Shown here in pieces: positions 2,506-60,620 of a stretch of 64,000 bases of DNA. Under the pieces are notes generated by a model. It saw nothing but the letters and a program-made list of their open reading frames with translations. It did no database searches and was not told the origin of the DNA. How positions within the stretch are numbered: the first letter of the stretch is position 1; each line of letters opens with the position of its first letter. Both the position numbers and the translations under genes were made by a program. Source of the DNA: Schmidtea polychroa (Eukaryota); the NCBI GenBank assembly GCA_044892525.1, contig CM097888.1, positions 12,896,001 through 12,960,000 of the forward strand. The letters run 5' to 3'.

Positions 2506-2523
2506 GATGACAGTATTGCTCTT

Positions 2524-28376: not shown

Positions 28377-30681
28377 AAGGTTGTAATAAAAAATATATAA
28401 TATTAAAACAATTTAAATTGTTTTAAAATGAGATACTTTATTTAACTTAAATAAATAATATTTTTTATAGATTTTTAAAATGGAAAAAGATTCAAAAATT
28501 TGTCATAATAATATAATTTAAAATTAAATTTAACAAGTATGAAATTGTAAAATTTTCTTGTACATAACACAATTATCTTAAAAGTTATATTAGTTTCTAA
28601 ATAGTTTGAACAACATATATATTTTTTCAATCATAAATATAAATGCCTATCACAAATACTTAAAATCCAATATTTTGAAATTCAATATTATATGACGGTA
28701 TTTATATAATTTGAAAATATCTAACTGAATTGTAACACAAATCTAATTTTTTATTAAATTATTAATTTTAATTAAAGCTTTTCTATGAGGAAAATATTAA
28801 TTTTAAAAATTATTTTAAATAAGCTTATGCAAATAAGTATTTTGTTCTCAATGTTAGATTTGTGGCGGTCTGAATTGGCTCAGGATTTCAAGTGGTATTG
28901 CTGGATATATCGTCTTAATTGAAACTTACCAATTTATAAAACAATAATTCTCAACCGTTTTTTGATAACGATACCTTTTTAATAATTTAGAAATATTAAA
29001 TAATTTTAAATTAAAATATTTTAAAATCTCCTTTTAACACATAGATTTGCAACAAATTAAAAATAATTTATTATTTAAATTTTAATTTTCAAAAAATATT
29101 TTTTAGTATAAAAAATTTATATTTTATAAATTTGCTTAAAAATCTGTATTTTCTATAATTATTCTATCCTACTTGACAATGACGGGAAAATTGCAAAAAT
29201 ATTTGAGTGGCGCTTTCTTATAATTAAACTATTGCCACGTATATTTAATTCTTGATTTATTGTTTAGTTAATTATTAGTATTTTATCATATTACCTAAAC
29301 TATTATAACTATTAATCATTTTAGTTTGATAATATATATTTTTTGATTTGTTTTATATTTATCATTTTTTTGAAATAATTGATGACACCATTTATTAATT
29401 TTTCTTAATGTTGGTGCTTAGGGGGTGTGTCATATAAATATTCAAGGGTTGTTTATGGATTTGGAATCGACTCTTTCCTAAACTCTTTCATTATTATTTT
29501 ACTTTATACCATCTGCGTATCCATGGCAACAACCATGTTGGTAATGTACACAGTGGCTGAAAATCAATGAGCAGATGAACTCTAATACTAGAACTACTCC
29601 TCATTGTATTTTCATTTTCGAGTTCTGGACTGCCTATAGAAGGTCTTACGTCACTGTTCATTATCTCTCTTTTCTTAGATGTGGCAAATATGTGCAGAGA
29701 GTACGGTGTCTGGTGCGAGTTGAACAAGGTTCGTTACGGAAAACCCGTTGTGTAATAGAAATAACTGCTCTGTCTGGAGGTTGAGTAAGAGTGATCAGAG
29801 TCATAGTGTGAGAACAGTGTTTAAAAAACGTGTACGTTAGAAGGAGGTGTATGAAGATAATTGTCGACTTTACGGTGAAAAAAACTGTTTTTGATATTGT
29901 TGGGTACGTTTGCAGAGGAAATGTTACGGAAAGAGTCGTTATCCCTTTTATGACTTTCGTAATATTTGAAAATTAATATTTGATAATAATACTTGATAAT
30001 ATTTAATATAATATGAAACTTGATAAAAATATTATTACAAAACTCTTTTTATAATATTTGTTAATGTTTAATATAATATTCGATACAATATTTAACTAAA
30101 ACTTTAAATTGTATATATTTGATAGAGTGCAATTAGATGAAATAAGGAATGCAAACAATTTAATAAAACTTACTTCAGCCAGGAACACTTCTGATACCAT
30201 TGTCGTGGTGGAGCTACCCGCACAGCAAGCTAATAATCGGACAAATAGATTAATTGAAAGTTCCACATAGTATAATCCAATTAAAAATTTCGAAAAATAA
30301 ATTTTCATATTTATTTGCGATTGTATTGTTGGGCTGAGTCGAAGGGTAGTTGGGAAATTAGGGCAAACTTAACTAAAATAAAATAAAAAATAAAAACAAA
30401 TAAATTGACAAATAAAATAGAATAAAACATAAGAAAAACAATAATTAGAAAATAGGAATTAAAACAAAAAATATAAAGATGAGAAAAAATTAAAATAGGA
30501 CAATAGAATGGCGGAAAACAACGTAAAATATAGTAAATAATAAGAAAATTAAGGAAAATAAATAAAAACATAATTTTAATAAAGAAAGTAAGAAGAAATA
30601 ACTAAAAACAAGGAAAATAAATTAAATTAATAAAATTAAGCGGTACTCAATTCTAATTGGTCCGCGCAAACAAAAAATTAA

Positions 30682-30791
30682 TATATAAGCAGGCATTAAA
30701 AACATAACAATTACTGTTAATCAAACCACCTCAATAGGTAAGTGAAATTTAAACAAGACTACTGTTAATCAAACAACCTCAATAGGTAAAT
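30682..30791 (+). promoter_or_regulatory. Candidate LTR core promoter and 5' splice donors
   Basis: TATATAAG at 30682; a 30-bp direct repeat (48-bp period, 30712 and 30760) whose copies end in AG|GTAAGT (30738) and AG|GTAAAT (30786); a further G|GTAAGG at 30953. Confidence 0.5.
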
Positions 30792-33191
30792 CTATTCTAC
30801 GACAGAACAGAACTCCAGCAACTAACGCACGATAACTCACGAGGACAATTCCAAGATTCAAGAGATTTTTACAGAACCAGACGATATTCGAGCATTAACT
30901 GATTCGACATAGTACCCTTTTCGACTCAGCCCATACTTGTAGCAATCCTTCGGTAAGGATTTTTGATTGCTTATTTTGAATTTTTAAGTAATGCGTATAG
31001 TTTAATAATATTTTTAATTTAAAAACTGGTTTTTCTTTTCGTTTGATTTTCGAATGCTTTACTTAAATTAATAATTTGCTTAATAATAAATGAATTAAGA
31101 ATTATTGATCTTTTATGAATTAATTTTTATGAATTATTATTGGAGACTATTCAATTTTGCGAGAAACGTGGCGTTGAGATACTCTATGTCATGGTGTGAG
31201 GTGCCTTCGGGAGCTCCACCGGTGGACATAGGGTATTTCAATCACGCAGCTAGATTGGGCCGAAATGTGAGGGCTTCTTCACGGGTCCAATTGCTGAAGG
31301 TGCGACTAAAATCTATAGGTAAATGGTGGCAGAAAATTGATAGTCATGTAGTGATTGAAAACAAAGATATGTAAGAAAGGAATCGGAGAATTTCGATGTA
31401 TTCGCGCAGTGATTGAGGGTGTCACACTATCGTTTTCGACTGCCGTTTTTGCTAAGCTTAAATTTTTCTCCATCATCAATGTAAGTTGTGCGTCAAAAAG
31501 TGTTCAAACCTTAGTGAGGCTATCTGTGACCTATCTTCGATGTTCATACTTTTCACTTAAGATCTGTTTCGACCAATTGTTAGTCTAAGACCTTTTGAAC
31601 TGGTATTCCGTTCATCTAAAAGTTCTCTTAAAGACATAGTTGCAAGGGAGTTCAAAGTAGATTGCTTCAGACAAGTATTAGGATTACTCGAAATGACTGT
31701 TTGTAAATAAATGGTAGAACCATGTAAAATGATTTAATCCAAAAAGTTATTCAGAATTGCATAAAACGAGTTTGTTCCAAATAAAAGCTTAAATTACATA
31801 AAATGATTCGCTATCATAAATTTTTAGAATTCTATATAAAAGGATTTACATACAATTAATTATCATGATTACATAAACTATTGGCATCAAATAATTTAAA
31901 AATGAAAAATGCAACCAATTCGAGCCAAGAAAAATATATTTCTTCAAGTTAGCCGATGATCTTGTTAATTAAATAAAAAATTCCAGTATTTCATGGGGTT
32001 GGCAATCCAGCAGGGATAGGTAGAAATCCTCCAGCACTTAGAGAGTAGATCGATAAACTAGGTTTGAGGAATTAAAGACGAAAAATCCACCCTTGGAGCA
32101 AGCTATATCCAACGTTTGCAATACAGATAATTATAATTTTTCCAATAATCCGGTGAGAATTAGTAAACCATCATCATATGCAGTAGAATTGTGAGCGATT
32201 ACGCGGTAGATAAAATTCTGAGAGAATGCCATCATGCAAACATTTAACACCTACATTTGTAGTGACGAGTATAAATAAGCGTGTGACAGCGCAACTTGCA
32301 TGCGTCACCAGTTGCAGACATACCTAGTAGCCAAGTACAGTGGGCAAAGTCACACACGCATCTACTCCTGAAAAACCAGACCGAACACACCAGATGGAGT
32401 TTCTATTAACTAATTAAACTACCGACAGGTATCGGATTTCACCGCTCCGGATTAAATGTCAACCACCGGGCTGACATTTCCTTATCCACCTAGCAGGAAT
32501 GGTCGGCTACTAGCTCACATTGATACCGTGCTCAGTTATCATAAAGGCAAAGTCTTTTAACGCTAAACCCGATCATAATCATGATTATTCTCTCTTTATT
32601 ATCTTAGCATGAATGGCATAGAAATTATTTCATTTTTTGACATAATTGTCATTAACATTAATATCGAATATTATTAAACAAATATTATTTAAACCGGGTA
32701 AAACACATATGCGAGTAATTTGAGAGAACGAATAAATAATTAAAAATTTAAATAACCTTCCGTTTATCCTGTAGGAACTAATCAACAGACATTATGGACC
32801 CCCTTTTCCATAGATAGTCACTCGACCCCAGTATATGATACACTCATCAAAATCACTCGTTCGGGGGGGGGAAGTCAACAATTCAACTCGATTCTCAATA
32901 AACGTGAAATAATGACTTCAAGCGGATTATATAAATAATCATTTTCATCGACCTAGAATTTCTCTCACTAATGGTAATATCTTCCTTTCCTTGTGCGAAA
33001 TGTGGTTTGAGCGATTTATCCTCTTACAGTTAAAGATCCAAAAGGTATGAGGATCCATCGTGCAGTAGAACTTGTCTTGACTAGTAAACCCATATTTTTG
33101 TCTATGATCAGTAAAGTCGGAATGTGGTCAGATGATGACACTCCCGTCGATTTAATTATTCTCATTTTCATTTTTTCCACAGTCACTCAAA

Positions 33192-33941
33192 ATGTTGCCA
33201 AATTCCAAGACCGTTCTTCGACCTTGTTTTTCTTGCTCCGACAAGAATTCAATTATCAAGGAGCTCCAGGCCCAGATCGGAAAGCACAAAAGAAAGATAG
33301 ATGAGTTAGAGGGGACATGGTTTAGTCCCACCCAGATGAAGGAGGTTCAGAAGAAGCTGCACCGAAGCGAGTACTGTAGAGACGCGTTGATTTCCGAGAG
33401 TCGGGCGCAGAGGAGCCTGATAAAAGAGCAATCGGAGGCGCTGCACAAATTATACGTCCAGGCAGCAACTACAAGGAAGATCGCGAAGATCCCAATTAAT
33501 GAAGCCAGTAATCTTTTCCCAGCGCATCATGATATCTCTGGCGGATCTTCTTCTCCAGTCGGAAAGTCCTGCCATGGGTGCGTAGAGACCGAGCTCTCAC
33601 CTAAAGAACCAGAAATTATCTGTACCGGAACCAGTAAAGTGCTACCTGCGATAGCATCCACCTCCGCAGCACCCCCGACCAATCCAACGGCATCGAAGCC
33701 AAAACGTCGGCAATTATCGAGAGCCGAACGCAAAAAGAAACAGCGGGAACGCGTAACCGCCAAACAGAACCAGCAATCGTCGGATCATCCAATCAAAGTC
33801 ATCAACCCTCCTGCAGCAATTGATTTAGCATCAGTGATCTCAGGGCGAATCATCTCCGCCGCTGGTGTTACCTGGGAGGAAAACGCCTCTGAGTTTTTCG
33901 ATTTGGAAGATCTATTGGCAGACTCGGAGTGGGAGAAATGA
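33192..33941 (+). CDS. LTR-encoded 249-aa protein (CxxC, coiled coil, Arg/Lys-rich motif, acidic tail), function unknown
   Basis: Intact in both LTRs; GC-richer than its flanks; strong acceptor TTTTCATTTTTTCCACAG ends 9 nt before the ATG. Confidence 0.7.
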   Translation: MLPNSKTVLRPCFSCSDKNSIIKELQAQIGKHKRKIDELEGTWFSPTQMKEVQKKLHRSEYCRDALISESRAQRSLIKEQSEALHKLYVQAATTRKIAKIPINEASNLFPAHHDISGGSSSPVGKSCHGCVETELSPKEPEIICTGTSKVLPAIASTSAAPPTNPTASKPKRRQLSRAERKKKQRERVTAKQNQQSSDHPIKVINPPAAIDLASVISGRIISAAGVTWEENASEFFDLEDLLADSEWEK

Positions 33942-34075
33942 GAACTTCCCCGTAAAAAGTCTTCGTTCTCTGAATTGACCTGAACATTGTCTGATAACAT
34001 TTTACCTTGTCTCTTTTCCCGTTGTCGTGAACTTTATTGTATAGGTGTTAGATATATTTGTGTGATAATCTTAAT

Positions 34076-34115
34076 AATAAACCATTTTTGTCTGCATACG
34101 TTTTTTTTGTGTTCA
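34076..34115 (+). terminator. Candidate LTR polyadenylation signal
   Basis: AATAAA at 34076-34081 followed by a T/GT-rich tract, 135 nt after the LTR ORF stop. Confidence 0.5.
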
Positions 34116-34512
34116 TCTTAAGACAGTTGAGTTGAAATTGGTAAATGGTATTGAGAGTCATAAAATTATGAGGAGCATTAGTCAGTTGGTAAACTCAGCT
34201 AGAAATATTGCGATGGGGCGACGGAATGAGTAGACGTAAGTCCTTCTATCGGCAGTCAGGGTTGGGAAGTCGAGGCCTCAGTAAGGAGTAGTCCGAAGGA
34301 GCTGGCTCACCTGCTTACTGGCGTCTCGCCGGCATAGCACAGTTCCAACGTGAAGCAATTCACGGGTGCTATGTTGGAGTGTAAGTTATGTACGGGTCCC
34401 GCTCGGCGATGACCAAATAAATGACGGGCGAAATCGAGGTGGGCATTCATCCTCTAGACTAAAGCTGCACTAGAAAGGGGTCATCCGAGTAGTGTACCCG
34501 CAACATAATTTT

Positions 34513-36207: not shown

Positions 36208-37573
36208 AAGGCCTAGAAAAGCGAGAGATAGCAGTTAAGCTACAATGAGCTAATATCTGAATTAATAGAGAAAGGGAATATTAAAGCTAGCTAGAAACAA
36301 ATTGAATGTAATTACGGAAATTTGAGTTTAGAGAGGAAATAAACGAGCTCGTGGAAAAGATAATAAGATTATAATGAAAAAGGAAAGGGAAGAAGGAAAC
36401 GAATTAAAGAGATAATGGAAAATAAAGAATAGGCGAAACGATGATAATGAGTAAAGAGGAAAGTAACCAACTAATTAAAGGGATCCCAGTGAGGTAGAGA
36501 AACTCTGCGGAATATTTTTTTTTGGTTAAACCGGGAAAATGCATTTTATTGGTTCCAGAGTAGAACCGAGCGTAATAATAGTAAATATGAAAAGTAAAAT
36601 AGCGACAACAGCGCAAAAGGAATAGGAAAACGAAGGGGGGTAATAAGCAGAGACCGACAACGACCTATTTTTACTATAATTGATAACGAATAGATAATTA
36701 TTACGACTTGATAGATAATTGTTACTACCCCATATAGATAATTTAAAATCGACGAAAAATTCGGGCTGATGGGAGATTATAACCCGCGGAAGTAATTGCA
36801 TAAAAAATAGGGGAAGCATAAACAGAACCTAAAAGGTGTCTGTGTTCGAACGTTGTTGAAAGAATGATGAAGTCGTGTAAGCAAATGCAACACGAGATCA
36901 TTTTTTCATTTTAGATATCAAACCAATCCAGTCAACCAAGACAATCCAGAACCTGCACAAAAGGAATTCGAAGAAATCGACAATCGACCAAGAATAAATT
37001 CATTCAGAACCCGCACCGAGAGACACAGCAACCGGAAGACTCCAGAACGGAAGAAGATACAGATAGCGATATCTCCAACTTCGAACGAATCATCGATATA
37101 TTCAACCTCATAATATTAGCAGCCATCTGTCAAGGACTAGTGAATCTCCTCAGAATCACAGTAGCAGATCCATACAGAATATTTATCGAAGGAAACACAA
37201 TCAGAACCGAACTCGTCCAATTCAATAGCCGCTAATTACCAAGAAGCGTAAGAAAGGAATCACGGATAAACCCAATCTTAGATCTTCAAGTAAGCCAGGA
37301 GACGTATTATTTTCAGGAGACGAATTACAACAACTCAAAAGAGGACGATCTATTAAACAGCAAAGAGGAATATCGCAAGGATCAAGAAGAACCAATCAAG
37401 TACCTATATTTGACCAAGAAAATCTCGGATACACCCCTAGTCGATCTCGAAGCAGAGAAAGTCTGTCCGACATCACTAATAGTTTAGCAACGTCAACCGA
37501 GGAATTATCAGCCCAAAGTTTAGTCACATCGTTAGACAATTTAAAAGAAACAGACGAATCTAGAACACCAATC

Positions 37574-40500
37574 ATGACGAATGTCGTAAAAACCGACGAG
37601 TATAAAGAAAAGTTCAGAGGAGAACCGTTCAACGGAAATGCAAACAAGTTAGCAACGTTCATAACTAATTTTGAAGTTTATATCACTGTATGTGGATGGA
37701 CACCCGAAGCAATTAGTAAAAGGATGCCGTTGTTTTTGTGCGATAGCGCATTAGAAGTATATTTAGAAGCTAAAGAGAGAGATACGAAATTAGAAAAGTG
37801 GGAAGATATCAAAACATTCCTGAAGAAAACCTTCGGAGCCAGTAAGCCAATCAACCAGGCGTTGGGCGAACTAGCAAATAGGAAACAAAGAGCAAACGAA
37901 TCGATAACATTATATGCCAGTGAATTGCGGAGATTAGCGAAGAAAGCAATGAATGGAAAATTACCCGAAGAAAATCTGATCGGTTATTTCATAGAGGGAT
38001 TACGCCGAGAAGAAGTAAGAGCCTCAGTAGGTTGTCAAATGTGCAAAACATTAGAGGAAGCCATAGATTGGGCTACAAGATGCGAGCTCCACCTTCCAGC
38101 TCAAATGAATATTATGCAAGAGGAGGGAAGGATAATGACAGCAATAGCGAAAGCGGATAACGGAGATAACAACAATCAAGAACCGAAAATGAATCAATTT
38201 ATACCAGGAGCGCACCAAATTTTCAAACCACCACAAGGACGATCAAATGGGAATAATGGTAATCGTAACAACCCGAATAATGAGAACAATTTTAATAATC
38301 GACGAAATATGAACGATAACAAGCAGTGTCGAACATGCGGTAAACCAGGACACTGGGACAGAGATTGCTATAGAAATTCAAATTGTAATCGTTGCGGACG
38401 GCGTGGACATACCGAAAATGTATGCCAATTGAGAGGTTGTTTTAACTGTGGTCAGCCAGGTCACATCTCCAGAGATTGCCGAGAAAGGGGCCAACAACAA
38501 CGACCACCACAGCGAAATAATAATTATATGGCGAATCCGCAACGACAAAGTAACCCTAGCGAAGGAAAACAAATGAACGTTATGCAGGAAATCTCGCAGA
38601 TGAAACAGATGATGCAACAAATGATGAGACCGAGACCGGAATCAGCACCACAACAAACCCAGAATATACGTATGATGAGGAGTACCGAAAATCTCAACAA
38701 TTATGAAGTGCATCAACATGTACAAGAATGGCAAAGACTACAGGCCGAGGAAGAGAGGATAAAACAAGAACGCAACCAACAACGACAAGAACAACCATTG
38801 CGAATTAATATGATGAAGTTAGTAAAAGACATGAAAAGCCAGTATTGCTACAATTACGGGAAAAACCCAAGGGTAGTACCCATGACTGAACCAGAAAAGG
38901 TAACAGAAACAACAACGGAAATGAAAACAGAGAATTCAACCACGATTTTGAAAGGAAACCAGAGAATTCAGAAAATATTCTGGAAAAAGATAAAAGATAA
39001 AATCGAAAAAGAACATAATAAAGCGAAAGCCGAGACAGAAGATGAAAATAACAAGAGCAAGGAACAAACCAGTCAACTAAACCACCAAATGCTACAAGAA
39101 TTAGAATCAGAAGAAACAACGATATTCGAAAGAAAGAAACTAAAGAGAGTACCAAGGATGAGAAATTTGCAAATCAATATGATGAAAAGGACAAAAGATG
39201 TAGCATCGTCAGACGAAGAAGAAGATTATGTAAGTAGTTTGGGTGGAGAAATACTACAGCTAAACGAAATAAGCGAACCTCCAAAAGGGGAAATCAAAGA
39301 GGAAGAAAGCGAAAGCGAGATAACAAGTGGAAGTGAAGACGAGGATATCGAAATAAAGTTGAGAAAAGCAAGGGAGGAAGCGATAAAACAGGTAGCCGAA
39401 ATACTCCCGGCGGTAGTGAGAAACCAAGAGTTCATCGACGTAATATCATTCAGGCGATTCGTGCAAAAAGTGATGAAATTGGAAAGAAACGAGAAAGATT
39501 TAATACCAAACGAGGAAAAATCAATTATAAAAAAGTATATGGAAAAAATGAAGCAGGCAGATACCACGCGGTATGTAATAAAAATCGGAACGAGTAGAGG
39601 ACTTGAAAGAATGTGGATAAAAAATACAGTCACCGACGAACTTTTCGATTGGATACGAGAACATTTGGGAAATTCGAGAAAGAAAGAATATCTGTATCAA
39701 TACCAAGGAGAACAGATTAAACCAGATATGCACTTGGTAGACGCACTAATATGGCCCGGAGAAACGCAAATACTGAAGTTGCATAAAGAAAAACAACCAG
39801 CCAACCTTTACGATTGGGCCAAAGATGCCAAGGCAGAATATGATTTTAATATCAAATTGAAATTAGAACAAATAAAACAATGTACTCTGAGACGAAACCT
39901 GGATAAGCTGATCAAACAAATTCAAGAACAAGTAGAAGACAACTGGGAATTACTCATCACTAGACGAGCCCCAGCCATGTACGAACTAATGAGCCGATTG
40001 CGAGATACAGAAATGCTCCGGATGAGTGATTGGAGAACCATAAATTTGATCCACAAATATGGAAGGTTAAAAGAAACCCAGCCACAGAGGTTGGAAATAA
40101 CCATATGGTTACCGAACGAAGAAAAACGACGAATAAAAATGAGCAATCGGAGTACAGTGGATGACTTGGTATCAAAGATAAACCAAGAGATAACGGAAAA
40201 GGTACGTAGCGAAAGTAGTGATGGTATGGTGGATGATGTAGTCCTGATGTACGATAAAATAATATTACGAGCAGAAGACGACACCTCGTTAAGCGAATTG
40301 GGTATGTGGGACAATCATCAGATCATCAGGATAGTACCAATGGATGAATTTCGAACAAGAGATGTAATCTATCAAAAAGAAATACGAGACCGGATGAAAA
40401 CGTTATATCAAAAATCTACAGAAATAATTGAAATCCACCAACAATGGTTAAAAGAAAAAGAACTACAAGGAAAAATCACGAAATTAAGCACCAGATCCTG

Positions 40501-43500
40501 CAGACGAACCCCATGGGAAAGAGTGTGGAATGCAGAAAATAAGGAATGGGAAATCCGGAAAGGAATCTTCGTAGAAACAGACATTGGTGAGACAGAAAGT
40601 GAATCGGAGGAAGAAGAAGAGGAACCTCCAGAATATGAAGAGGAAGCAAGGGGACAGACATCAGATGACGAAAGCGAGACGGATGTCACATCAGAAAGCG
40701 AAAATGAAGCGAGACATATTCATGCAATGAGGAAAAAGGAACGTGAATATGCTGATATGGACGGCGAGGAAGCGACGGAAGCAAGAGAACGAGAAGAGAC
40801 AGAAAGATATAAACAATTAGGCGATATCTTAGCAATGGGAGCGAAAAATCAAAAACGCCAAGTAGTAGCGTTGGCTAACATCATCTTAAAGACATCAGAG
40901 AACATCCACAATCTGAGAGGAATGGCAAAGGCAATAGAGGAATACCGGCAATATAATGAATGGTATCCAGAACAGCTAGAACAAATTATTCGAAAATGGA
41001 GAAATCAGGAATGGGCACAAGACACTCAGGAGAGGTATCACATCCGAATCAAGTATCCGGACAAGAGCATCGAGGAACTAGAGGTGCATCCAACAACAAA
41101 GATTAGAGAATTAAAAAAGAAATTAGCATATGAAACTCCATTCCATCTGCAACTATTCGGAAAATCACTAGACGATAATGCAGACGTCGGAATAACACCC
41201 ATGAGATTGGAAGAGACAAATGTGTTAACAATGGCAGAAACGTTGGGAAAGCCGTTAAAAAGGAAAAGTAAAATTACTAAACTAACAAAAGGCAGTTTGA
41301 GTACTCCAAGTTCGAACAAAGCACCAAGTAAATCTAATGAAACTGAAGAAGTTGAAGAGATAATCCTGGAAGATAGTGACGATGAACCAGGAGAAAGATC
41401 ACCGCTATTAGTAAGATGGCCGACAGGAGCCGAAATGTGGACTAATAACCAGCCATCAACGAGTTATCAACAACCAACGAAACTAAACATCAAAGAAATC
41501 ATCGACAATACTACGGAAACCGAAACGGATGAACAATTCCAGAAGCAAAGAGAACCAACGAAAGTAACACCAGAAGGTCAAACCGATAAAATAATAGATG
41601 AATGGAATGAGTGGCTAAGAAATAACGATAGCTCATTACCCAGAACGGATAACGAAAGAAATCCGAATTACGAAAATACCAGAGAAGCCGGAACGATGAT
41701 GGAAAAACGGGCAAAAGGAAGACCTAAGAAACAAGGAGAAAAGTCTGAGTTCAAAACCAAAGAACAATTAAAGCAAGAACAAGGGCAAGTTCGATTAGAA
41801 AAATTGGATAAAATAGTATGGGATCTAAAGGAAGCCCAACCAACGATCGAAAGAGGAGAAAAATGGATACGAGAATTGATCAAAGATATGTTAATAATAA
41901 CAAACCCACAACTTAGACGTTTGTGGCAACGGAAAGTAGCCAGTACGGAAGCTAGACAATTATGGCACATCGTTTCGGGGATAATCCCAAAGTTAATCAA
42001 AGAGAAAACGAAAACCACCAAAACGGATTGGGATGAAACGAAGAGAGTGATTGAACTGCTCACGACAAATGCAAATGATGACGAACATCATCTAGTGGTA
42101 ATCACGTATTTGATGTATAATTTGATGGGACTAGCTGCGAGGAAAATACCAAATAAACAATTTGCAAATCATGTGGAAATGACCGTTTCAATCATAGAGA
42201 ATACTATTGAACCACATATTATTCGTGCCGGAGGATGGAAAAGACTTATACAAGCGCCACGAAAAAATGAGCAAGAAAGGTCGATGCAAGTTAGATTGAA
42301 GAAGTTGTTGAATGAACTAGAATGGGAACTACCCATGAAAGACCCAGCAAGCCGAAAAGCATCGATAAATTCGTTAATGATGACTATGATGATATGGATG
42401 TTGTGCACAAGTGGAGCAACAGGTTTTACCATCTACGATTGTGATAATATGATAATGAGAGATAAATACTCGTTGAGAGACATAGAAGAATGCAGACAAG
42501 CATCACCCAACAAATTAGACATAGTAAGAACAAAAGTTACTTACCATGTATATCAAGAATCAGATTTCATCAGAACGCAAGCAAGGGAATGCGTGGTATC
42601 AAAAAAGGTACTCGCATATTACTGTGGACAATATTCGTATTCGACTCTTATACTACCTGGTCTGGATAAAGAAATCGTATCAATACAACGAGAGGACTGT
42701 AAAGAGCTATTTAGAACCGGAGCGCTAAAAATGCATAACGGAGTGACGATTCACGGACAAACTGGAATGATTAAAACCGAAAGCGTTTACGTATCCGGAA
42801 AAGTAAAATCATCAGATGGGTCATGTAACGGAGGTACGTATACGATCCGAGGCGAAGTAATATCGGGGGTAGTAGTGATTGAGTCCTATACGGTTGAACT
42901 AAAGGAATACGAAGCGCAATTTGACGCAAATAATTACCAAATGAAGACCAACCTAGCGTGTAGAGCTACAGAAAACGTATGTAGGACAGGAGTATCAACT
43001 ATAATCTATGAAGCTAATAATCAAAAATGCCGACTCCAACTGTTAAAAAGTGCTTTGTTCAATGAAGTAAAAGGAGAAATATATGAGAACGAGAACGACG
43101 AGGATGGAAACGACAGAGTGAGAATGCGAAATGGAAAACCAATGCCACCATCTCCCAGAGAAAAGAGACTTTCAACGCAGAAGACACCAACAGCATTAAT
43201 CACAGACGATCCAGATCTAGGTATGAGATTTATCAAAGAGAAAGAAACCACCAAATGTGACAGTATAGTATATAAAACCAATTACGCAGGCATCTATATG
43301 TCGAGACAAATAATCGATAGAGCAGTGGGAAAGATAGCAACGGAGGACGTAAAACTATACTTATATGCAAATAATAAAATGGATTTTCTATTTCATCGCG
43401 GACAAACGACCTTGCAAAAAGTATATTACGATCTGATACAAAACGATTGTTCATTGAATAAAGAAATATTGAAAACAAAGCTAGCTATTGCGATAACGCA

Positions 43501-46500
43501 CCCAGATAACACGATGCCATCACTCCCATTACCGGATGGACATTTTGGTAGAATGGTAGGAGAAGTAATGTACACATACCAGTGTACCAAGACGTATGCA
43601 CGAATGCCAGAAAAATCTATACTACCCGAAAAGAGATGTGCAAATGAATTAGAAATCCGTTATAAGGGACAAAATCGATTCGTCCAACCAGTCACTAGAA
43701 TTATGAATCCAGTGGGTTTCTACCCAAATCTCTTTAACTGTTCTAATGCATACGGACCTTTGTATGAAAGGCCCAATGGGAAATGGATGATGTTACCGGG
43801 AAAAACCATATCCGAGGAACCCAAGAAATTTGGATTAATAGAACTTGCCACAGAGCTAGATTTCAAACCTATAGACGTGTCAAACGGTGGTATGTATTCC
43901 CCAGAAGATCTAGAAACAGCACGACTTAACGTACTCTTCCCAGCCAGACGAGAATCCATTTTGTCAAATATGGTTACAATAACGGGGGGAACAAATTATC
44001 AATCAGGCCCGAACTACGAACTGCTACTATCGCCAGACCATTTTCAACAAGCCACATCAAACATGATGAAAGCAATGTGGGGAAGATTCTTAGTTTTTGG
44101 ACAAATGATGGCCGGGATATTAGGGATCATACTCATAATTCAGATAGTCAGAGTAATACTAACACAAATGTTAGCGTGTTTTGATATATACAAGCGGGAA
44201 AAGAAAGTAAATTGGAAAATGATAGTAGGCTTTCTACCATTTTTAGCTAAAACCATGGTATTACATGGTCACTCAAAAGACATTCATCGGATAAAGCGAT
44301 TGATTAAAATATTAACAAAGATTAAAGGAACCGACGAAGAAGTAGGCAGACGATTCCGGAAAGTAATGTACGATGAAGCAACAAGACGACAATTGAAAAA
44401 GAATAAGCCAAAATTTTTGGACCGATTTAGAAGTCAATCATCTAACAGCGATAGTGACGACGATGATAACGGGAACGATAAATGTCTATATCCAACCAGA
44501 AACCCAAACGAAAAACCAATGGAAACAGCACCATATTGGGAAAAGGAAAAGACAAACACCTGGATCGCCAATGGAAGCTATATACCACCGGATATCGTGG
44601 GACCACAAGCAGCTTTGACCATGACACAAAATATGTATCCGCAATTACCGAGTCAACCCGGCATGCATTATATGCCAACACGACGTACCAAAAGTGTAGA
44701 TCAAGCAGATGACGTAAGAACAATAGCAGCGATGAGTCTACCTGGAGGTCCAGCAGTAACAGTTATGATTCAAATCAATGGTAAAGAAACCAATGCTATG
44801 ATAGACACAGGAGCTAATGTATCAGCGATAGCGATTAATCAAATTCCCAGTAAACACTGGAAAGATATGGAATCCACAACAATTCACATCATAGCATGTA
44901 GTAAAGAAACAGTGGACGTGGTCGGAAGATGGTGGACTACTTTGAGATACCAGGACAACGAAATTGAAACGTATTTGGCAGTAATACCAAAACTTAGCGT
45001 ACCATGCATAATCGGAACGGATTTGATGCCAGAATTGTTAAAAGAAGTCGTAATTGACTTAACAACCATGTGTTTAAAAGACAAAACCGGTAGAATATGC
45101 AAAATGAATGCAGTCATCAGATGTCCAGAAAAAATAATAGTACCAGCAAAATCGCAGATGATTTGTCAGATAAAAGTGGATACGGGTATGGAAGGAGAAG
45201 TTATCTTTGAACCAAGCAAGTCATTTGAAAAGCGACGAGAATTACCACTCGCAAGAGAAATAATCACAATAAACCAAGAAGGAGTGATACCGCTCAACAT
45301 CACGAATTTCGAAGAGGAAGACAAAATCATTTATGAGAACGAAAAATTGGGAAGATTGACCCCAATGATGGACATAGAATTACCGAAAATGACCAACGAG
45401 ATGAGCAAAGATGATGAATTATGGACAATAGATAGTATGTTGTTGACGAATGATGAAAAGAAAAAATTGCACCGATTGTTGGTAGAATATAAAGATATAT
45501 TCGCCATCTCAGATTTAGACTTGGGTACATGCGATGTTACCCTACATGCAATACCCCTCATAGATGAAACTCCAATTGCATTAAGACCATACAAGCTAGC
45601 AGAAATGCAAAAAGAAATAGCCGAAGCAGAAGTACAAAAGATGCTGGACGCAAAAGTAATCGAACCGAGTTGCTCACCCTGGCAATTCCCAGTGGTCATG
45701 GTAAAAAAGAAAGATGGCACCCAACGATTCTGTATCGATTATCGGAAGTTAAACGCAGTAACCAAGAGAGATATCTATCCATTGCCGGACATCAATGAGA
45801 TGTTATTGATGTTGCAAGGGGCAGCATATTTTACTTCTTTAGACCTAAAAAGTGGATACTGGCAGATTAAAGTCAAGGATGAGGACAAAGAGAAAACAGC
45901 TTTCACGTTGGGACGAGATCTATATCAATTCAGGAAAATGCCATTCGGACTAACCAACGCACCAGCATCATTTCAACGATGTATGAACTTTGTCACTCAT
46001 GGAATCAAACAATGTATGGTATATATTGATGATTTACTAATCTATTCAGCGACATTTGAACAACATCTGGAAGATATCCGAAACGTATTTATTAGATTAA
46101 GACAGTGGAAACTCAAACTCAAACCATCAAAATGCGATTGGGCAAAGGAAAAAGTCACGTTTTTGGGACACATAGTGTCAGCTAAAGGAAAGGAGCCAGA
46201 TCCAAGAAACATTGAGAAAATAAAAACATGTCCAGCACCGAAAACTGTCACCCAAGTTCAGGAATTTCTAGGATTATGCGGATACTATCGCAAATTTATC
46301 AAAAATTATGCAGGAATTGCAAAACCAATCCAGGAATTAGTAAAGAAGGATATTTCGTTCATTTGGGAAAAAGAACAACAACAGGCGTTCGAAACGCTGA
46401 GAGACAAACTAATCGAAGCACCAATACTGGTACACCCAGATTTCAAGAAGCCATTTCTATTGGCAACGGATGCAAGCGGGTACGCGGCAGGCGCGATTCT

Positions 46501-49500
46501 GGGACAATTAGACGATGAAGGAAAAGAGAGAGTAATCGGGTATTACAGTCGAACATTCAAAAAGCACGAAAAGAACTATTCGGTAACAGAACGGGAAGCA
46601 TTGGCTATAATACAAGCTATCAAACACTTCCGATACTTACTATGGGGACATGAGATATGTATAACCACAGATCATCAACCATTAGTGTGGTTAGGGCAAC
46701 ATAAAGAAGCGTCCAGTAGACTGATGAGATGGGCCATGCAATTGAAAGAATACTCCCCATTTATAAAATTCAAAGCGGGAAGAGCAAATGCCAACGCCGA
46801 TTGTATGTCAAGATTTATTTTTCCAGATTTGGTGGATTCCGAAATGCAACGCATATGCTTAATAGTAGCGGAAGATTTGGATTTCTGTCAATTGCGAAAA
46901 GACCAACAAGAGGACGCGGAATTAAAACAAATTATCGATTATGTAAAAACCGGAAAGACAGATGTATATGCGAAAGACCAAAAATTAAAAGAACATATGG
47001 ATAAACACCGACACCGATATATTATAGAGAAAGATTGGTTGCTGATAATGGATGGGGAAAAACGATTAATGTGTATACCGGAAAACCGACGAAAAGAGTT
47101 ACTAACGCAATATCACGATGGGAGATTGGGAGGACATATGTCATCGAAAAAGACGTTAGCAAGAATGAAACAGAAATATTTTTGGCCTACGTTAACTGAA
47201 GATGTAACCGAATGGGTAAAAAATTGTCTAACTTGTGCAACCAGGAAGAATACTGGATCGAAATGGAAAGCACCTTTAACGCCAATGCCAGTACCAATAG
47301 AACCAATGACAATGATATCCATGGACGTAGTTGGTCCACTACCAGAGTCAGATAAAGGAAACGTTTACATTCTAGTGATCACAGACTTTCTTACGAAATT
47401 CCCAGAAGCATTCGCGATGCCAGACCAAAAAGCTAAAACAATCGCAAAAATTTTGGTAGAAGAGATATGTTGCCGATATGGAACACCAAAACAGATATTA
47501 ACCGATCAGGGAACTAATTTTATGAGTGAGATAATGAGCGAAGTAACAAATTACTTCAAAATAGCAAAACTAAGAACATCTCCATACCACCCTCAAACCA
47601 ATGGGATGACGGAAAGATTTAATGGAACACTTATACAAATGTTATCAAACTACGTCGACCGTCACCAACGAGATTGGGACGAATATATAAACCTATGTCT
47701 TATGGCATACAGAATGTCGATTCACGCATCAACGAAAATGAGCCCATTCAAATTAATGTACGGAAGAGAGTGTAATATGCCAATGGACCTGGAATACCAA
47801 CCACCGATATCGCAGTATATGGAGATCGATGATTATGTTACGAAATTCAAGGAAAGAATGCAAGAGATTTGGGAAACTGCGGGATTAAATATCAAGTTCT
47901 ACCAGGAAAGTTATAAAGATTTACACGATCGAAAGAAAAACGTGAAGCAACATACGTTTCAAACAGGTGATTGGGTAATGATAGAAACCCCGGAATTAAT
48001 TCCAGGAACCACAAAAAAGTTACAACGCAACGGAAAAGGACCATATGAGATCTTATTCGTAGGCGAAACCAATGTAAGAGTGAAATTGGTAAATAACCCA
48101 TTTACCAGGCCAATATACGTAAACGTGGCACGATGCAAATCAATTCCAAAAACAGCCACAAGTCAACCAGAAGGCCGTACATTAACCACACGTTCGCAAA
48201 CCTACCGAATGAACATGATGCAACAACTCGCAGAACCGATCACCGGACGATTGGGTATCCAACCATCAGAAGCGGAAAAGATTGTAAAAGAGGTAAAAAT
48301 TAAAATACCTGGATGGGCGAAAGATCGATTAGATTTTGAAATATTAGGAGGATTATTGACGATGATCGAGAACTATGCAAATAGAGAAAGGACACACCCA
48401 TTATTGCGAGTAGTCAAAAGCCAATGGCCAATATTATTTACAATAACAGATCATTACGGAGACACACCATTACACAAACTCATGAAAGTAGGTAACAACG
48501 AGCAAATACTAGAAACAATAGAAGCATTTCACGACTGCAAGCGATCAACAGAACAAACAAACAACCAAGGTTACACACCATTAATGATAGCCGCAAACAG
48601 AGGCAAAACAAAAGACATTATAACCGCATTACTCGATACCGGATCGAAAATAACTACACAAGACCACGAGCGGAAAAACGCTCTACATCATGCTATCGAA
48701 GGGAGAAGTACCGAGGCGTTCACGTCATTGATGGAACTACTATCATATGAGGACAATCGGGAAGTCGGAAACATGTATGATGGATTGTTAACAGCGATCA
48801 AAGAAAAACTGACGACAATTACCGGAATATTAATTACATGGAGAAATCCAATTCAAAACGATTATATGATCAACGTAAACGAAGCGTTCACGAGAGGAGA
48901 GAACACGCTGATGAGAGAAGCTATGAAAGGACATCATTTATTCGAAATCCCGAATCAATTACTAGAACGAGGGATAAAATTCACAAATCACAAAGATGAA
49001 CAGTTAACAAAAAAGCGAATCGACACATTCGAAAAATCACTATTCCAATTTACTAACCAAGTACGAAATAAATATTGGGAAACGGTAAGTGTGTTATATA
49101 TGATGGACACAATGAATAACATCCGCGAGAATTACCTGGATATTATCCAAATACTTACAGCAGAGGAACGAATCAATAATCCAAACGGAAAGAAAACGAA
49201 AATAAGGTATGAGAAATCCAGGGAATCAAAGTCAACAACGAACCAAACGGTCACAAACAACGTCATCGAAACCAAATCAATGAGTATAGATCAAGAGGCA
49301 ATAATACGCAAAGCAAAAGAAGTGTTCTTTGAGGAAATGCTAGAGCTGCCAGACGAAATAATATTGTCCAAAATAATAAAAGCCGTACACACATACGCAA
49401 GAGATCAAACCACGGGTTTAGATATCGGGAAAATCAAAACCTTCTTGCCTCGAGCATTTACGATGGTAACAAAGGATTCCAGAACACCTCTACAACAAGC

Positions 49501-51427
49501 AATACTAGCTGCAAAAGAGAATAGAGCAATAACGATCATGAGAATCCTTGGGGAGATGGGCGAGGAAACCAACACGAAAAATGAACAAGGTGAAACCGCC
49601 ATGATGTATGCAGCTATAACGAAAATACACCCAAAAACACTCCACATCCTACATCAATCAGGATCGAAACTAGACGAAAGGTCCAATGAAGGAAATTCCA
49701 CCTTGGACTGGGCAACCATACAGCCAAACTTAGAAATGATCAGATTTATTTGCAAAAATGCGACAAAGGAAGAAGTTGAAAATATGTGCAAAGACACATC
49801 TCAGTTTCAATGGAATACGATACGGAAAAATCTAGAAGCAATGAAATTATTATTAACATGGAGGGTACCACAAAATAATAAATATGCGATAAATGTAAAC
49901 GAATTCTACGAAAACGGAGAAAATGCGATAGTAAAGAATACCCTAACTAAGGGGGGGACGCCTAAAATTATTTTAATAGTATTAAATAGAGAAGACCTAA
50001 AATTCACGCAAAATCAGAACGAGCAACAACGAATTGGGAAACATCGTCGTATGCAATTGAGAGAGTTAGTTAAAGAATGGAATAGAAAGAGACATGCTGC
50101 AACGGGTAGAAAAGAGTTTGAATTCGAAGCAAAATTAGCAAGAAACAGAGTGCTAACAGCATATCGCAGATTATTGAACGATATAAATGTCGAGGACGAC
50201 ATTTTAAACGACAGCGGGGGAGATAAAAACGATGACAATGACGGAAAAGGCCGAAAGGAGGATAAAGGGAAAAGAGAACCGGAAGAGGATAAACCGGAAA
50301 ACAAGGATTTGGATACGAAAAGAGAGGGAAACAGGCCGGGAACCAAGACCAAAGAGGAGGAAAAACCGAATAATGGAAAACAGAGGGTATGCCTACCTTT
50401 CACTAACAAAGAAATAGAGACAAATATGATATTAATGATAATTATGCTTACCATGATAGAGTTAGTAACAGCTCATGGAGGGACGAGAACGATAAAAGAA
50501 ACCAAAGAAGCGGAGAATCAAGATAGCAAAGAGGATGAACTAAAACAAGAAAAGAAAAAGCAAGCACAAGAGCAGCAGTGGGATTTGAAGGAAGAATGGG
50601 ACTTAAAGGAAAGGTGCATACTAGGAAGATGCATGTCTAGAGCGTATCAGAAACTAGTACTGATAAATGAGGACACAGAACCAATAACAGAAGTAAGAAT
50701 ACAAGAAGCATACCGAAATCGAGACGGGAAGAGAATAACGAACGTTAAAGGAAAAGAGGTACACCTAGGAAAAGGTGGTGAAGTAGTAATAACGCAGCTC
50801 CAACCTAGAAAAGAGCACAAAGTCTGTATTTCAAGATTAGGACCAGGTGAGAGATGCCATCAATATGTGACGCAGCAGCAGCCGCCGAAAGAATACACGG
50901 TTTGTATCTGGAGGAACGAATCAAAAAGAGAATGCCGACGATACCCGGGGAAAAGAGGAAAGAAAAGAAAAAACCACGACGAAAAGAACGAAGGAGGAAA
51001 GCACAAGAAAACCGGTGAGGAAGCTCAGGACAACTATGTTTCGGAGGAAGAGATGGAAAAAATACAAAAGATGGCAAAGGAGGGTATGAACGAGGAAATA
51101 GCAAGAATACGGGAAATGATGAAAGGAAATGGCAAAAGAGGAAACGAGCAAGGTACAGAAGCGATATCAACATTAACGAACAAGGAGAAACCAGAGAATA
51201 TAAGCGTGAAGCAGATGATGTGGATCAGTGGGATAATAATAACAGGGGCCTTCCTAATCATAACAGGGGGAACAATAAAAATAATTAAAGATAAACGACA
51301 TCGCGGAGAACTAGAGATGACCCGAATCAGAAATTTCCAACATCGAGTGAAACGACCAAGTGATATCAAACAAGAACAGTGGGTGGAGGCCTGGAACGCT
51401 CAGCGCCCTCCAAACTCACGTATATAG
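37574..51427 (+). CDS. 4617-aa Gag-UBL-Bcl2-like-Env-PR-RT-RH-IN-ankyrin polyprotein
   Basis: Single stop-free ORF. Capsid-like N-terminus, three CCHC knuckles (38327-38479), DTG (44804), LDLKSGYWQI/MPFGLTNAP/YIDD (46022), TDAS RNase H (46469), HHCC and D-D-E integrase, GPY motif. Confidence 0.97.
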   Translation: MTNVVKTDEYKEKFRGEPFNGNANKLATFITNFEVYITVCGWTPEAISKRMPLFLCDSALEVYLEAKERDTKLEKWEDIKTFLKKTFGASKPINQALGELANRKQRANESITLYASELRRLAKKAMNGKLPEENLIGYFIEGLRREEVRASVGCQMCKTLEEAIDWATRCELHLPAQMNIMQEEGRIMTAIAKADNGDNNNQEPKMNQFIPGAHQIFKPPQGRSNGNNGNRNNPNNENNFNNRRNMNDNKQCRTCGKPGHWDRDCYRNSNCNRCGRRGHTENVCQLRGCFNCGQPGHISRDCRERGQQQRPPQRNNNYMANPQRQSNPSEGKQMNVMQEISQMKQMMQQMMRPRPESAPQQTQNIRMMRSTENLNNYEVHQHVQEWQRLQAEEERIKQERNQQRQEQPLRINMMKLVKDMKSQYCYNYGKNPRVVPMTEPEKVTETTTEMKTENSTTILKGNQRIQKIFWKKIKDKIEKEHNKAKAETEDENNKSKEQTSQLNHQMLQELESEETTIFERKKLKRVPRMRNLQINMMKRTKDVASSDEEEDYVSSLGGEILQLNEISEPPKGEIKEEESESEITSGSEDEDIEIKLRKAREEAIKQVAEILPAVVRNQEFIDVISFRRFVQKVMKLERNEKDLIPNEEKSIIKKYMEKMKQADTTRYVIKIGTSRGLERMWIKNTVTDELFDWIREHLGNSRKKEYLYQYQGEQIKPDMHLVDALIWPGETQILKLHKEKQPANLYDWAKDAKAEYDFNIKLKLEQIKQCTLRRNLDKLIKQIQEQVEDNWELLITRRAPAMYELMSRLRDTEMLRMSDWRTINLIHKYGRLKETQPQRLEITIWLPNEEKRRIKMSNRSTVDDLVSKINQEITEKVRSESSDGMVDDVVLMYDKIILRAEDDTSLSELGMWDNHQIIRIVPMDEFRTRDVIYQKEIRDRMKTLYQKSTEIIEIHQQWLKEKELQGKITKLSTRSCRRTPWERVWNAENKEWEIRKGIFVETDIGETESESEEEEEEPPEYEEEARGQTSDDESETDVTSESENEARHIHAMRKKEREYADMDGEEATEAREREETERYKQLGDILAMGAKNQKRQVVALANIILKTSENIHNLRGMAKAIEEYRQYNEWYPEQLEQIIRKWRNQEWAQDTQERYHIRIKYPDKSIEELEVHPTTKIRELKKKLAYETPFHLQLFGKSLDDNADVGITPMRLEETNVLTMAETLGKPLKRKSKITKLTKGSLSTPSSNKAPSKSNETEEVEEIILEDSDDEPGERSPLLVRWPTGAEMWTNNQPSTSYQQPTKLNIKEIIDNTTETETDEQFQKQREPTKVTPEGQTDKIIDEWNEWLRNNDSSLPRTDNERNPNYENTREAGTMMEKRAKGRPKKQGEKSEFKTKEQLKQEQGQVRLEKLDKIVWDLKEAQPTIERGEKWIRELIKDMLIITNPQLRRLWQRKVASTEARQLWHIVSGIIPKLIKEKTKTTKTDWDETKRVIELLTTNANDDEHHLVVITYLMYNLMGLAARKIPNKQFANHVEMTVSIIENTIEPHIIRAGGWKRLIQAPRKNEQERSMQVRLKKLLNELEWELPMKDPASRKASINSLMMTMMIWMLCTSGATGFTIYDCDNMIMRDKYSLRDIEECRQASPNKLDIVRTKVTYHVYQESDFIRTQARECVVSKKVLAYYCGQYSYSTLILPGLDKEIVSIQREDCKELFRTGALKMHNGVTIHGQTGMIKTESVYVSGKVKSSDGSCNGGTYTIRGEVISGVVVIESYTVELKEYEAQFDANNYQMKTNLACRATENVCRTGVSTIIYEANNQKCRLQLLKSALFNEVKGEIYENENDEDGNDRVRMRNGKPMPPSPREKRLSTQKTPTALITDDPDLGMRFIKEKETTKCDSIVYKTNYAGIYMSRQIIDRAVGKIATEDVKLYLYANNKMDFLFHRGQTTLQKVYYDLIQNDCSLNKEILKTKLAIAITHPDNTMPSLPLPDGHFGRMVGEVMYTYQCTKTYARMPEKSILPEKRCANELEIRYKGQNRFVQPVTRIMNPVGFYPNLFNCSNAYGPLYERPNGKWMMLPGKTISEEPKKFGLIELATELDFKPIDVSNGGMYSPEDLETARLNVLFPARRESILSNMVTITGGTNYQSGPNYELLLSPDHFQQATSNMMKAMWGRFLVFGQMMAGILGIILIIQIVRVILTQMLACFDIYKREKKVNWKMIVGFLPFLAKTMVLHGHSKDIHRIKRLIKILTKIKGTDEEVGRRFRKVMYDEATRRQLKKNKPKFLDRFRSQSSNSDSDDDDNGNDKCLYPTRNPNEKPMETAPYWEKEKTNTWIANGSYIPPDIVGPQAALTMTQNMYPQLPSQPGMHYMPTRRTKSVDQADDVRTIAAMSLPGGPAVTVMIQINGKETNAMIDTGANVSAIAINQIPSKHWKDMESTTIHIIACSKETVDVVGRWWTTLRYQDNEIETYLAVIPKLSVPCIIGTDLMPELLKEVVIDLTTMCLKDKTGRICKMNAVIRCPEKIIVPAKSQMICQIKVDTGMEGEVIFEPSKSFEKRRELPLAREIITINQEGVIPLNITNFEEEDKIIYENEKLGRLTPMMDIELPKMTNEMSKDDELWTIDSMLLTNDEKKKLHRLLVEYKDIFAISDLDLGTCDVTLHAIPLIDETPIALRPYKLAEMQKEIAEAEVQKMLDAKVIEPSCSPWQFPVVMVKKKDGTQRFCIDYRKLNAVTKRDIYPLPDINEMLLMLQGAAYFTSLDLKSGYWQIKVKDEDKEKTAFTLGRDLYQFRKMPFGLTNAPASFQRCMNFVTHGIKQCMVYIDDLLIYSATFEQHLEDIRNVFIRLRQWKLKLKPSKCDWAKEKVTFLGHIVSAKGKEPDPRNIEKIKTCPAPKTVTQVQEFLGLCGYYRKFIKNYAGIAKPIQELVKKDISFIWEKEQQQAFETLRDKLIEAPILVHPDFKKPFLLATDASGYAAGAILGQLDDEGKERVIGYYSRTFKKHEKNYSVTEREALAIIQAIKHFRYLLWGHEICITTDHQPLVWLGQHKEASSRLMRWAMQLKEYSPFIKFKAGRANANADCMSRFIFPDLVDSEMQRICLIVAEDLDFCQLRKDQQEDAELKQIIDYVKTGKTDVYAKDQKLKEHMDKHRHRYIIEKDWLLIMDGEKRLMCIPENRRKELLTQYHDGRLGGHMSSKKTLARMKQKYFWPTLTEDVTEWVKNCLTCATRKNTGSKWKAPLTPMPVPIEPMTMISMDVVGPLPESDKGNVYILVITDFLTKFPEAFAMPDQKAKTIAKILVEEICCRYGTPKQILTDQGTNFMSEIMSEVTNYFKIAKLRTSPYHPQTNGMTERFNGTLIQMLSNYVDRHQRDWDEYINLCLMAYRMSIHASTKMSPFKLMYGRECNMPMDLEYQPPISQYMEIDDYVTKFKERMQEIWETAGLNIKFYQESYKDLHDRKKNVKQHTFQTGDWVMIETPELIPGTTKKLQRNGKGPYEILFVGETNVRVKLVNNPFTRPIYVNVARCKSIPKTATSQPEGRTLTTRSQTYRMNMMQQLAEPITGRLGIQPSEAEKIVKEVKIKIPGWAKDRLDFEILGGLLTMIENYANRERTHPLLRVVKSQWPILFTITDHYGDTPLHKLMKVGNNEQILETIEAFHDCKRSTEQTNNQGYTPLMIAANRGKTKDIITALLDTGSKITTQDHERKNALHHAIEGRSTEAFTSLMELLSYEDNREVGNMYDGLLTAIKEKLTTITGILITWRNPIQNDYMINVNEAFTRGENTLMREAMKGHHLFEIPNQLLERGIKFTNHKDEQLTKKRIDTFEKSLFQFTNQVRNKYWETVSVLYMMDTMNNIRENYLDIIQILTAEERINNPNGKKTKIRYEKSRESKSTTNQTVTNNVIETKSMSIDQEAIIRKAKEVFFEEMLELPDEIILSKIIKAVHTYARDQTTGLDIGKIKTFLPRAFTMVTKDSRTPLQQAILAAKENRAITIMRILGEMGEETNTKNEQGETAMMYAAITKIHPKTLHILHQSGSKLDERSNEGNSTLDWATIQPNLEMIRFICKNATKEEVENMCKDTSQFQWNTIRKNLEAMKLLLTWRVPQNNKYAINVNEFYENGENAIVKNTLTKGGTPKIILIVLNREDLKFTQNQNEQQRIGKHRRMQLRELVKEWNRKRHAATGRKEFEFEAKLARNRVLTAYRRLLNDINVEDDILNDSGGDKNDDNDGKGRKEDKGKREPEEDKPENKDLDTKREGNRPGTKTKEEEKPNNGKQRVCLPFTNKEIETNMILMIIMLTMIELVTAHGGTRTIKETKEAENQDSKEDELKQEKKKQAQEQQWDLKEEWDLKERCILGRCMSRAYQKLVLINEDTEPITEVRIQEAYRNRDGKRITNVKGKEVHLGKGGEVVITQLQPRKEHKVCISRLGPGERCHQYVTQQQPPKEYTVCIWRNESKRECRRYPGKRGKKRKNHDEKNEGGKHKKTGEEAQDNYVSEEEMEKIQKMAKEGMNEEIARIREMMKGNGKRGNEQGTEAISTLTNKEKPENISVKQMMWISGIIITGAFLIITGGTIKIIKDKRHRGELEMTRIRNFQHRVKRPSDIKQEQWVEAWNAQRPPNSRI
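39566..41239 (+). other. Three ubiquitin/SUMO-like domains in the polyprotein (about 39566-39784, 40088-40339, 41033-41239)
   Basis: The third reads HIRIKYPDKSIEELEVHPTTKIRELKKKL...LQLFGKSLDD (ubiquitin LEV.P..TI..K.K..L.F.GK.L.D). The first has YQYQGEQI (SUMO F.F.G..I). The second has TVDDL..KI..LMY...L..D.SLSELG. Confidence 0.6.
41858..42257 (+). other. Bcl-2-like domain in the polyprotein
   Basis: IEPHIIRAGGWKRL matches the Bcl-xL BH2 motif LEPWIQENGGWDTF; 53-residue gap-free register back to the BH1 position (DEHHLV for NWGRIV). Confidence 0.6.
42377..44182 (+). other. Envelope glycoprotein domain, chuvirus/class III fusogen-like, with internal signal peptide and TM anchor
   Basis: Signal MMTMMIWMLCTSGATG|FTIYDC; YSL.DIEEC, ECVV..YYCG, C.....TG, DGSC.GG.Y, CR.....C; TM WGRFLVFGQMMAGILGIILII. 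The pattern matches remembered Jingchuvirales G proteins. Confidence 0.8.
48449..49765 (+). other. Two ankyrin-repeat clusters after integrase (48449-48740, 49475-49765)
   Basis: YGDTPLH, QGYTPLMIAA, RKNALHHA; SRTPLQQA, QGETAMMYAA, EGNSTLDWA. Confidence 0.85.
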
Positions 51428-51947: not shown

Positions 51948-52032
51948 ACCAAACCTAGCTTAAAATGTAAATAACTGTAAATAAAATATCGAACCTGTAT
52001 CGATAAGAACTATATGTACATATAATTATAGA

Positions 52033-59100: not shown

Positions 59101-59352
59101 CATTTTCATCGACCTAGAATTTCTCTCACTAATGGTAATATCTTCCTTTCCTTGTGCGAAATGTGGTTTGAGCGATTTATCCTCTTACAGTTAAAGATCC
59201 AAAAGGTATGAGGATCCATCGTGCAGTAGAACTTGTCTTGACTAGTAAACCCATATTTTTGTCTATGATCAGTAAAGTCGGAATGTGGTCAGATGATGAC
59301 ACTCCCGTCGATTTAATTATTCTCATTTTCATTTTTTCCACAGTCACTCAAA

Positions 59353-60102: not shown

Positions 60103-60620
60103 GAACTTCCCCGTAAAAAGTCTTCGTTCTCTGAATTGACCTGAACATTGTCTGATAACATTTTACCTTGTCTCTTTTCCCGTTGTCGTGAACTTTATTG
60201 TATAGGTGTTAGATATATTTGTGTGATAATCTTAATAATAAACCATTTTTGTCTGCATACGTTTTTTTTGTGTTCATCTTAAGACAGTTGAGTTGAAATT
60301 GGTAAATGGTATTGAGAGTCATAAAATTATGAGGAGCATTAGTCAGTTGGTAAACTCAGCTAGAAATATTGCGATGGGGCGACGGAATGAGTAGACGTAA
60401 GTCCTTCTATCGGCAGTCAGGGTTGGGAAGTCGAGGCCTCAGTAAGGAGTAGTCCGAAGGAGCTGGCTCACCTGCTTACTGGCGTCTCGCCGGCATAGCA
60501 CAGTTCCAACGTGAAGCAATTCACGGGTGCTATGTTGGAGTGTAAGTTATGTACGGGTCCCGCTCGGCGATGACCAAATAAATGACGGGCGAAATTGAGG
60601 TGGGCATTCATCCTCTAGAC

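Follow-up and report, generated by a model that had tools for sequence, protein, structure and literature searches.

The window analyzed here is a stretch of 64,000 nucleotides from Schmidtea polychroa (contig CM097888.1, positions 12,896,001 to 12,960,000, forward strand), in which positions 30318-60620 constitute a retroelement of approximately 30 kb with long terminal repeats (LTRs) and a single Gag-Env-Pol frame. Pfam analysis along 37229-51427 reveals, in order, Gag, CCHC knuckles, a weak Bcl-2 match, a Monjiviricetes-type fusion glycoprotein, protease (PR), reverse transcriptase (RT), RNase H (RH), integrase (IN), and ankyrin repeats. Ubiquitin-like domains (UBLs) and Bcl-2-like cargo lie between Gag and Env, and these, together with the ankyrin repeats, give the layout described for the planarian Burro elements. 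The element is young and present in high copy number; the 633-residue region with three helix-UBL units recurs at 97-100% identity at the 70 best of 1560 candidate places in the source genome. The features are as follows:

30318..34459, + strand: 5′ LTR, aligned part (99.6% identity with 56471-60620 over 4150 nt)
37229..51427, + strand: single frame for Gag, three helix-UBL units, Bcl-2-like domain, Env, PR, RT, RH, IN, and ankyrin repeats (4732 codons from stop to stop, with a likely start Met at 37574)
39344..39559, + strand: helical bundle H1 (helical in AlphaFold2 models; leave-one-out homology of the unit)
39566..39784, + strand: UBL1, likely β-grasp, most diverged from the family profile, no Gly-Gly (by homology; fold without a confident model)
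39884..40078, + strand: helical bundle H2 (AlphaFold2 models and leave-one-out homology)
40088..40339, + strand: UBL2, predicted β-grasp, loop insertion after helix 1, no Gly-Gly
40571..40723, + strand: acidic linker between units 2 and 3, 45% Asp/Glu
40790..41023, + strand: helical bundle H3, made of four helices and weakly similar to HEAT pairs and the TFIIS N-terminal domain
41033..41239, + strand: UBL3, predicted β-grasp, 26% identity to host ubiquitin, no Gly-Gly
41951..42268, + strand: Bcl-2-like domain, approximate limits (Pfam PF00452, E 0.093 here and 7e-6 in family C)
56471..60620, + strand: 3′ LTR, aligned part (LTR-LTR alignment)

A sequence-only reading of this DNA had treated the three UBLs as stand-alone domains. 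All UBLs of these elements are preceded by a helical block of about 75 residues, and such blocks can be aligned to one another; judged from sequence comparison, the repeating unit is the helix bundle plus its UBL, some 160 residues in all and larger than the UBL alone. When each window unit was held out and scored against a profile that included the remaining two, the result was 22.3 bits for unit 1, 18.9 for unit 2, and 43.1 for unit 3, values reached by 0/500 shuffles and 0/500 block shuffles, the score of unit 2 lying barely above the best block shuffle (18.8). A profile of non-window units gave 34.5 bits for unit 3, 5.9 bits for unit 2 (best of 200 shuffles, 4.5), and 0.6 bits, which is not significant, for unit 1. 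The window UBLs are only 11-21% identical to each other, so the repeats are old.

The module was present in all 11 elements compared (17 units in total), which represent about six lineages on the Env tree and are not 11 independent observations. The window element carries three units, families B, D, and E and the external protein P0006 two each, and family C and the five other external proteins one each. A profile built from eight units of the source genome, with family E and the external proteins left outside it, recovers the module in family E and in 6/6 external proteins (P0002-P0007, all Gag-Env-Pol polyproteins from public assemblies). Among 34 loci fetched upstream of Env or Bcl-2 matches, 30 contain it, and the remaining four are truncated or interrupted copies of families C and E. 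The module is kept in elements that lack a Bcl-2-like profile match (0/6 external proteins, one of which appears Bcl-2-like by eye) and may be a more fundamental feature of the group than the Bcl-2-like cargo is. In a tree of the 17 units, the first units of B and D group firmly (99/95) and their second units nearly so (92/98), with nothing else resolved; its branches are long, and it neither orders the duplications nor tells whether those behind the window's three units were family-specific. Searches for direct homologues of the three-unit region returned none among 6582 candidates (lengths 1109-3165 only) and none among 1.84 billion representatives, and a profile search for a host helix-UBL donor returned 0/7993 (lengths 309-2000; weak evidence).

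Comparison of 23 ungapped copies (22 of the 24 other loci plus the window) shows the module to be under purifying selection. Counting shared variants, the ratio of nonsynonymous to synonymous variation (pN/pS) was 0.04-0.15 in all six domains versus 0.16-0.27 in the linkers, the counts being small and the copies picked by protein score.

The beta-grasp fold proposed from sequence for all three UBLs is borne out by the predicted models of UBL2 and UBL3. UBL1, which reached a predicted local distance difference test (pLDDT) score of 40-50 without alignment rows, is probably a β-grasp as well by virtue of its significant held-out homology to the other units; its features score 0.89-0.90 to Rad60-SLD/ubiquitin Atlas clusters, which is a lead only. 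A single-sequence AlphaFold2 run gave a pLDDT of 34. For unit 1, H1, and H2, no fold match was found among the matches listed, which UBLs filled, so this is not evidence of absence. The best score to PF11976 (Rad60/Esc2/NIP45 SUMO-like) was 17.1 bits against a cut-off of 23.8, with 2/18 rows at E<0.1.

Identity of the units to ubiquitin is 9-26%. What is conserved is the core, Gly47 (11/17 units), a Gly at position 60 (16/17), and an acidic loop at ubiquitin positions 52-58, where Arg54 is mostly replaced by Glu. Ubiquitin receptors read the Ile44 patch. In alignment with host ubiquitin, position 44 is Ile in 1/17 units and hydrophobic in 5/17, position 8 is Leu in 3/17, and position 70 is Val in none; of the window units, UBL1 and UBL3 have Gln at position 44, where the alignment of UBL2 is poor. 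The Leu8/Ile44/Val70 hydrophobic patch of proteasome-docking UBLs and ubiquitin mimics is therefore not kept, and mimicry through this face is unlikely. The suggestion that the UBLs dock on the proteasome or deubiquitinases is weakened accordingly.

Not one of the 17 units has a Gly-Gly near its end, as had been noted for the three in the window, whereas an unrelated BEL/Pao repeat of the same genome retains the pair after both ubiquitin units of its fusion (locus L026). For this reason the cleavage-tag and conjugation readings fail, and the claim that the window UBLs are non-conjugatable and do not act as cleavage tags stands. The BEL/Pao-type repeat is itself high-copy, with near-canonical di-ubiquitin fused ahead of Gag (L026:3674-7858, +; L027:1511-5641, -; L030:3477-7481, +), and its copies carry differing host gene fragments (DSP phosphatase; Ras plus TCP-1; DEAD helicase). 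The high-copy ubiquitin matches of the genome (G000) were considered as a source of the window UBLs and rejected as unrelated, 6/6 loci giving no tblastn match to the element.

Both in structure and in profile, the helix bundle weakly resembles the N-terminal domain of TFIIS (TND), in register over 52 columns. Its model has four helices as against five in the TND, and a gap of 5 residues falls at the short helix in the middle. A helix-only profile found nothing convincing among PDB sequences, the best match being a designed repeat. The source genome contains an expanded cluster of near-identical host genes with a TFIIS N-terminal (Med26) domain, in frames of about 340-520 residues (G000:C2:164.2-172.5 Mb; L051, L052, L054, L055).

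Several short motifs lie around the units:

39173..39184, + strand: candidate cleavage site, upstream of unit 1, for the aspartic protease encoded by the element (hydrophobic-N/R/H-x-hydrophobic motif)
40625-40636, + strand: PPxY motif in the acidic linker
40718-40729, + strand: second candidate protease site, between units 2 and 3
41705..41731, + strand: basic GRP motif, which we take to be AT-hook-like
42365..42424, + strand: third candidate protease site, followed by a hydrophobic signal-peptide-like stretch before Env

Of the 15 matches to the protease-like motif, presumably akin to gypsy processing motifs, 9 fall at domain borders: one follows the capsid (CA), three follow the knuckles, one precedes unit 1, one separates units 2 and 3, one precedes the Env signal, and PR and IN are each followed by one. 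Downstream of the last unit, 5/11 elements have an AT-hook core. Just after UBL3, a hydrophobic core followed by acidic residues (41357-41386) resembles a SUMO-interacting motif and is kept in 25/25 copies; similar motifs occur in 4/11 elements at differing places.

Taken together, our preferred reading, to which we assign a probability of about 0.5, is that each UBL forms the second half of a module (a four-helix bundle plus a UBL without Gly-Gly) that is under selection and has been triplicated in tandem, and that, after release by the element's own protease, likely serves as a fixed adaptor for host proteins, nuclear ones included. Cleavage at the candidate sites would yield one product with units 1 and 2 and another in which the AT-hook-like motif and the Bcl-2-like domain accompany unit 3. 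Contacts with host proteins would be made by the bundle and by the acidic loop conserved in the UBL rather than by the Ile44 face. The adaptor part is moderately supported. The most speculative step, which we infer by analogy with TFIIS N-terminal and SUMO-like domains, is that the partners may be nuclear chromatin or transcription factors; a nuclear-factor adaptor is the best single reading because the bundle resembles transcription-factor scaffolds, the UBL is SUMO-like and acidic-faced, and an AT-hook core is present.

Several points weigh against this. The partner proteins remain hypothetical and homology of the bundle to the TND is not established: the PF08711/Med26 Pfam match is absent in 8 bundles and 18 units, the TND profile gives an HH probability of 7% (E 0.005), or 3% without the window's row, and its score is reached by 2/150 block shuffles. 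The structural Z score is at the chance level for helical bundles (Nup192 9.2, PI3K-gamma 8.9), the H3 model has a pLDDT of 50-60, and the range aligned to TFIIS extends into the UBL. The protease motif (15 matches versus a shuffle mean of 6.1) was drawn up with the sequence already in view, and it does not recur at corresponding positions of the other ten elements; 6/11 elements are devoid of the AT-hook core, and UBL1 lacks a confident model. Choosing copies by best protein match biases pN downward within the searched range; CA and Bcl-2, outside that range, gave similar pN/pS values.

A stronger form of the adaptor reading is that the bundle is a captured TFIIS N-terminal/LEDGF-type domain, such that TND-like bundle, SUMO-like domain, and AT-hook would form an element-encoded chromatin tether linking the integrase complex to the host transcription-elongation machinery. 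Lentiviruses borrow LEDGF from the host, and such a tether would be its self-supplied counterpart; we regard this form of the reading as improbable. Should the bundle prove to be a genuine TND, it would have no element-encoded precedent in our literature search and would bear on integration-site choice.

Among the alternatives, the modules might act in particle assembly or budding, lying on the cytoplasmic side between nucleocapsid and Env signal anchor and recruiting ESCRT like a fused ubiquitin or a late domain. According to PMC2958808, fusion of a ubiquitin lacking Gly-Gly to the Gag C-terminus drives ESCRT-dependent budding; a hydrophobic signal-like stretch precedes Env in 11/11 elements, and PPxY lies between units 2 and 3 in 25/25 window-family copies. 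The same paper makes that budding dependent on Leu8 and Ile44, seldom kept in these units, while PPxY is found in 1/11 elements and PTAP/PSAP in 0/11, and the helix bundle is left unexplained; we consider this role unlikely. Quite unlikely, too, is that the UBLs are ubiquitin decoys or proteasome-docking domains which blunt host ubiquitin signaling together with the RING, MATH, and Bcl-2-like cargo. The ubiquitin-like fold and the element's IAP-type RING and RING-MATH proteins would suit such a role, and interference with apoptosis and ubiquitination is suggested in PMC6431247; against it stand the rarity of Ile at position 44, the low identity to ubiquitin, and the retention of the module where the Bcl-2-like profile match is absent. 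Of the earlier alternatives of decoy or scaffold, the latter is plausible.

The modules could also be structural spacers, a self-associating matrix- or tegument-like layer without a host partner, which would fit a copy number of 1 to 3 and the divergence within one protein with the core pattern kept. We find this doubtful: conservation of surface acidic residues across lineages suggests a partner, and where the protein does contain pure spacers, these are disordered and under weaker constraint. A pestivirus-type role, in which ubiquitin or SUMO proteases of the host would cut the UBLs as processing signals on the model of the bovine viral diarrhea virus inserts linked to NS2-3 processing and the cytopathic type (PMC13517609), is extremely improbable and already largely refuted by the missing Gly-Gly, which the true ubiquitin-Gag fusions of this genome keep.

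Elsewhere in the element, an IAP-type RING accessory frame lies upstream of gag (34773-35318, +) and a RING plus TRAF/MATH frame downstream of pol (51985-53418, +), with three further downstream accessory frames having no family match above cut-off. Both LTRs contain a 261-codon frame of no known family (33156-33938 and 59317-60099, +), and the leader upstream of gag includes a tandem array with a 74-nt period (35882-36251). One sequencing run, guessed to be RNA, its kind not being on record, covers 30/30 bins.

Our results replace a loosely applied cargo label with a defined domain family: a helix-bundle/UBL unit which has been duplicated and triplicated and which Burro-like elements keep more constantly than the Bcl-2-like domain. 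They rule out the cleavage-tag reading and supply precisely bounded constructs for structural studies and pull-downs in the giant retroelements that are most abundant in a regeneration model group. The presence of a UBL here is already published for the Burro family: in section 7 of PMC6431247, the giant gypsy-like planarian elements Burro/GYPSM1 have a “Ubi2/SUMO-like (PF11976)” motif between MATH and BCL-2. Shared with them are the size of about 30 kb, LTRs, one polyprotein, Gag, CCHC knuckles, Ubi2/SUMO-like before BCL-2, in-frame Env before PR, and ankyrins; the likeness is one of described layout. That text gives one such motif without partner helix bundle, repeat, or copy-number change. 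Pfam finds no MATH domain in the long frame of the window element, which, unlike the Burro1/GYPSM1 polyprotein, has it in the downstream accessory frame. In the literature searched, we found neither the conserved module of bundle and UBL nor its 1-3-fold repetition, leaving aside the Grohme 2018 figure and supplements, which may list these domains.

The gene order and Env type are those of the GAG-ENV-POL HSV/gB-type errantiviruses of Platyhelminthes, in whose main text and seven supplements, as searched, “ubiquitin” occurs 0 times (PMC13524379, in part). The TND/LW fold (TFIIS N-terminal; LEDGF integrase-binding domain) is likewise a small HEAT-like helical bundle, weakly like that of the window (PMC9987994). 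By comparison with the integral SUMO-like domains of Rad60/Esc2/NIP45 (PF11976), the window UBLs fall below the Pfam cut-off and are each paired with a helix bundle. Cytopathic pestivirus inserts also place a UBL inside a viral polyprotein; as described in PMC13517609, they are recent, near-intact host captures tied to processing, whereas the window UBLs are ancient, highly diverged from ubiquitin, and devoid of Gly-Gly.
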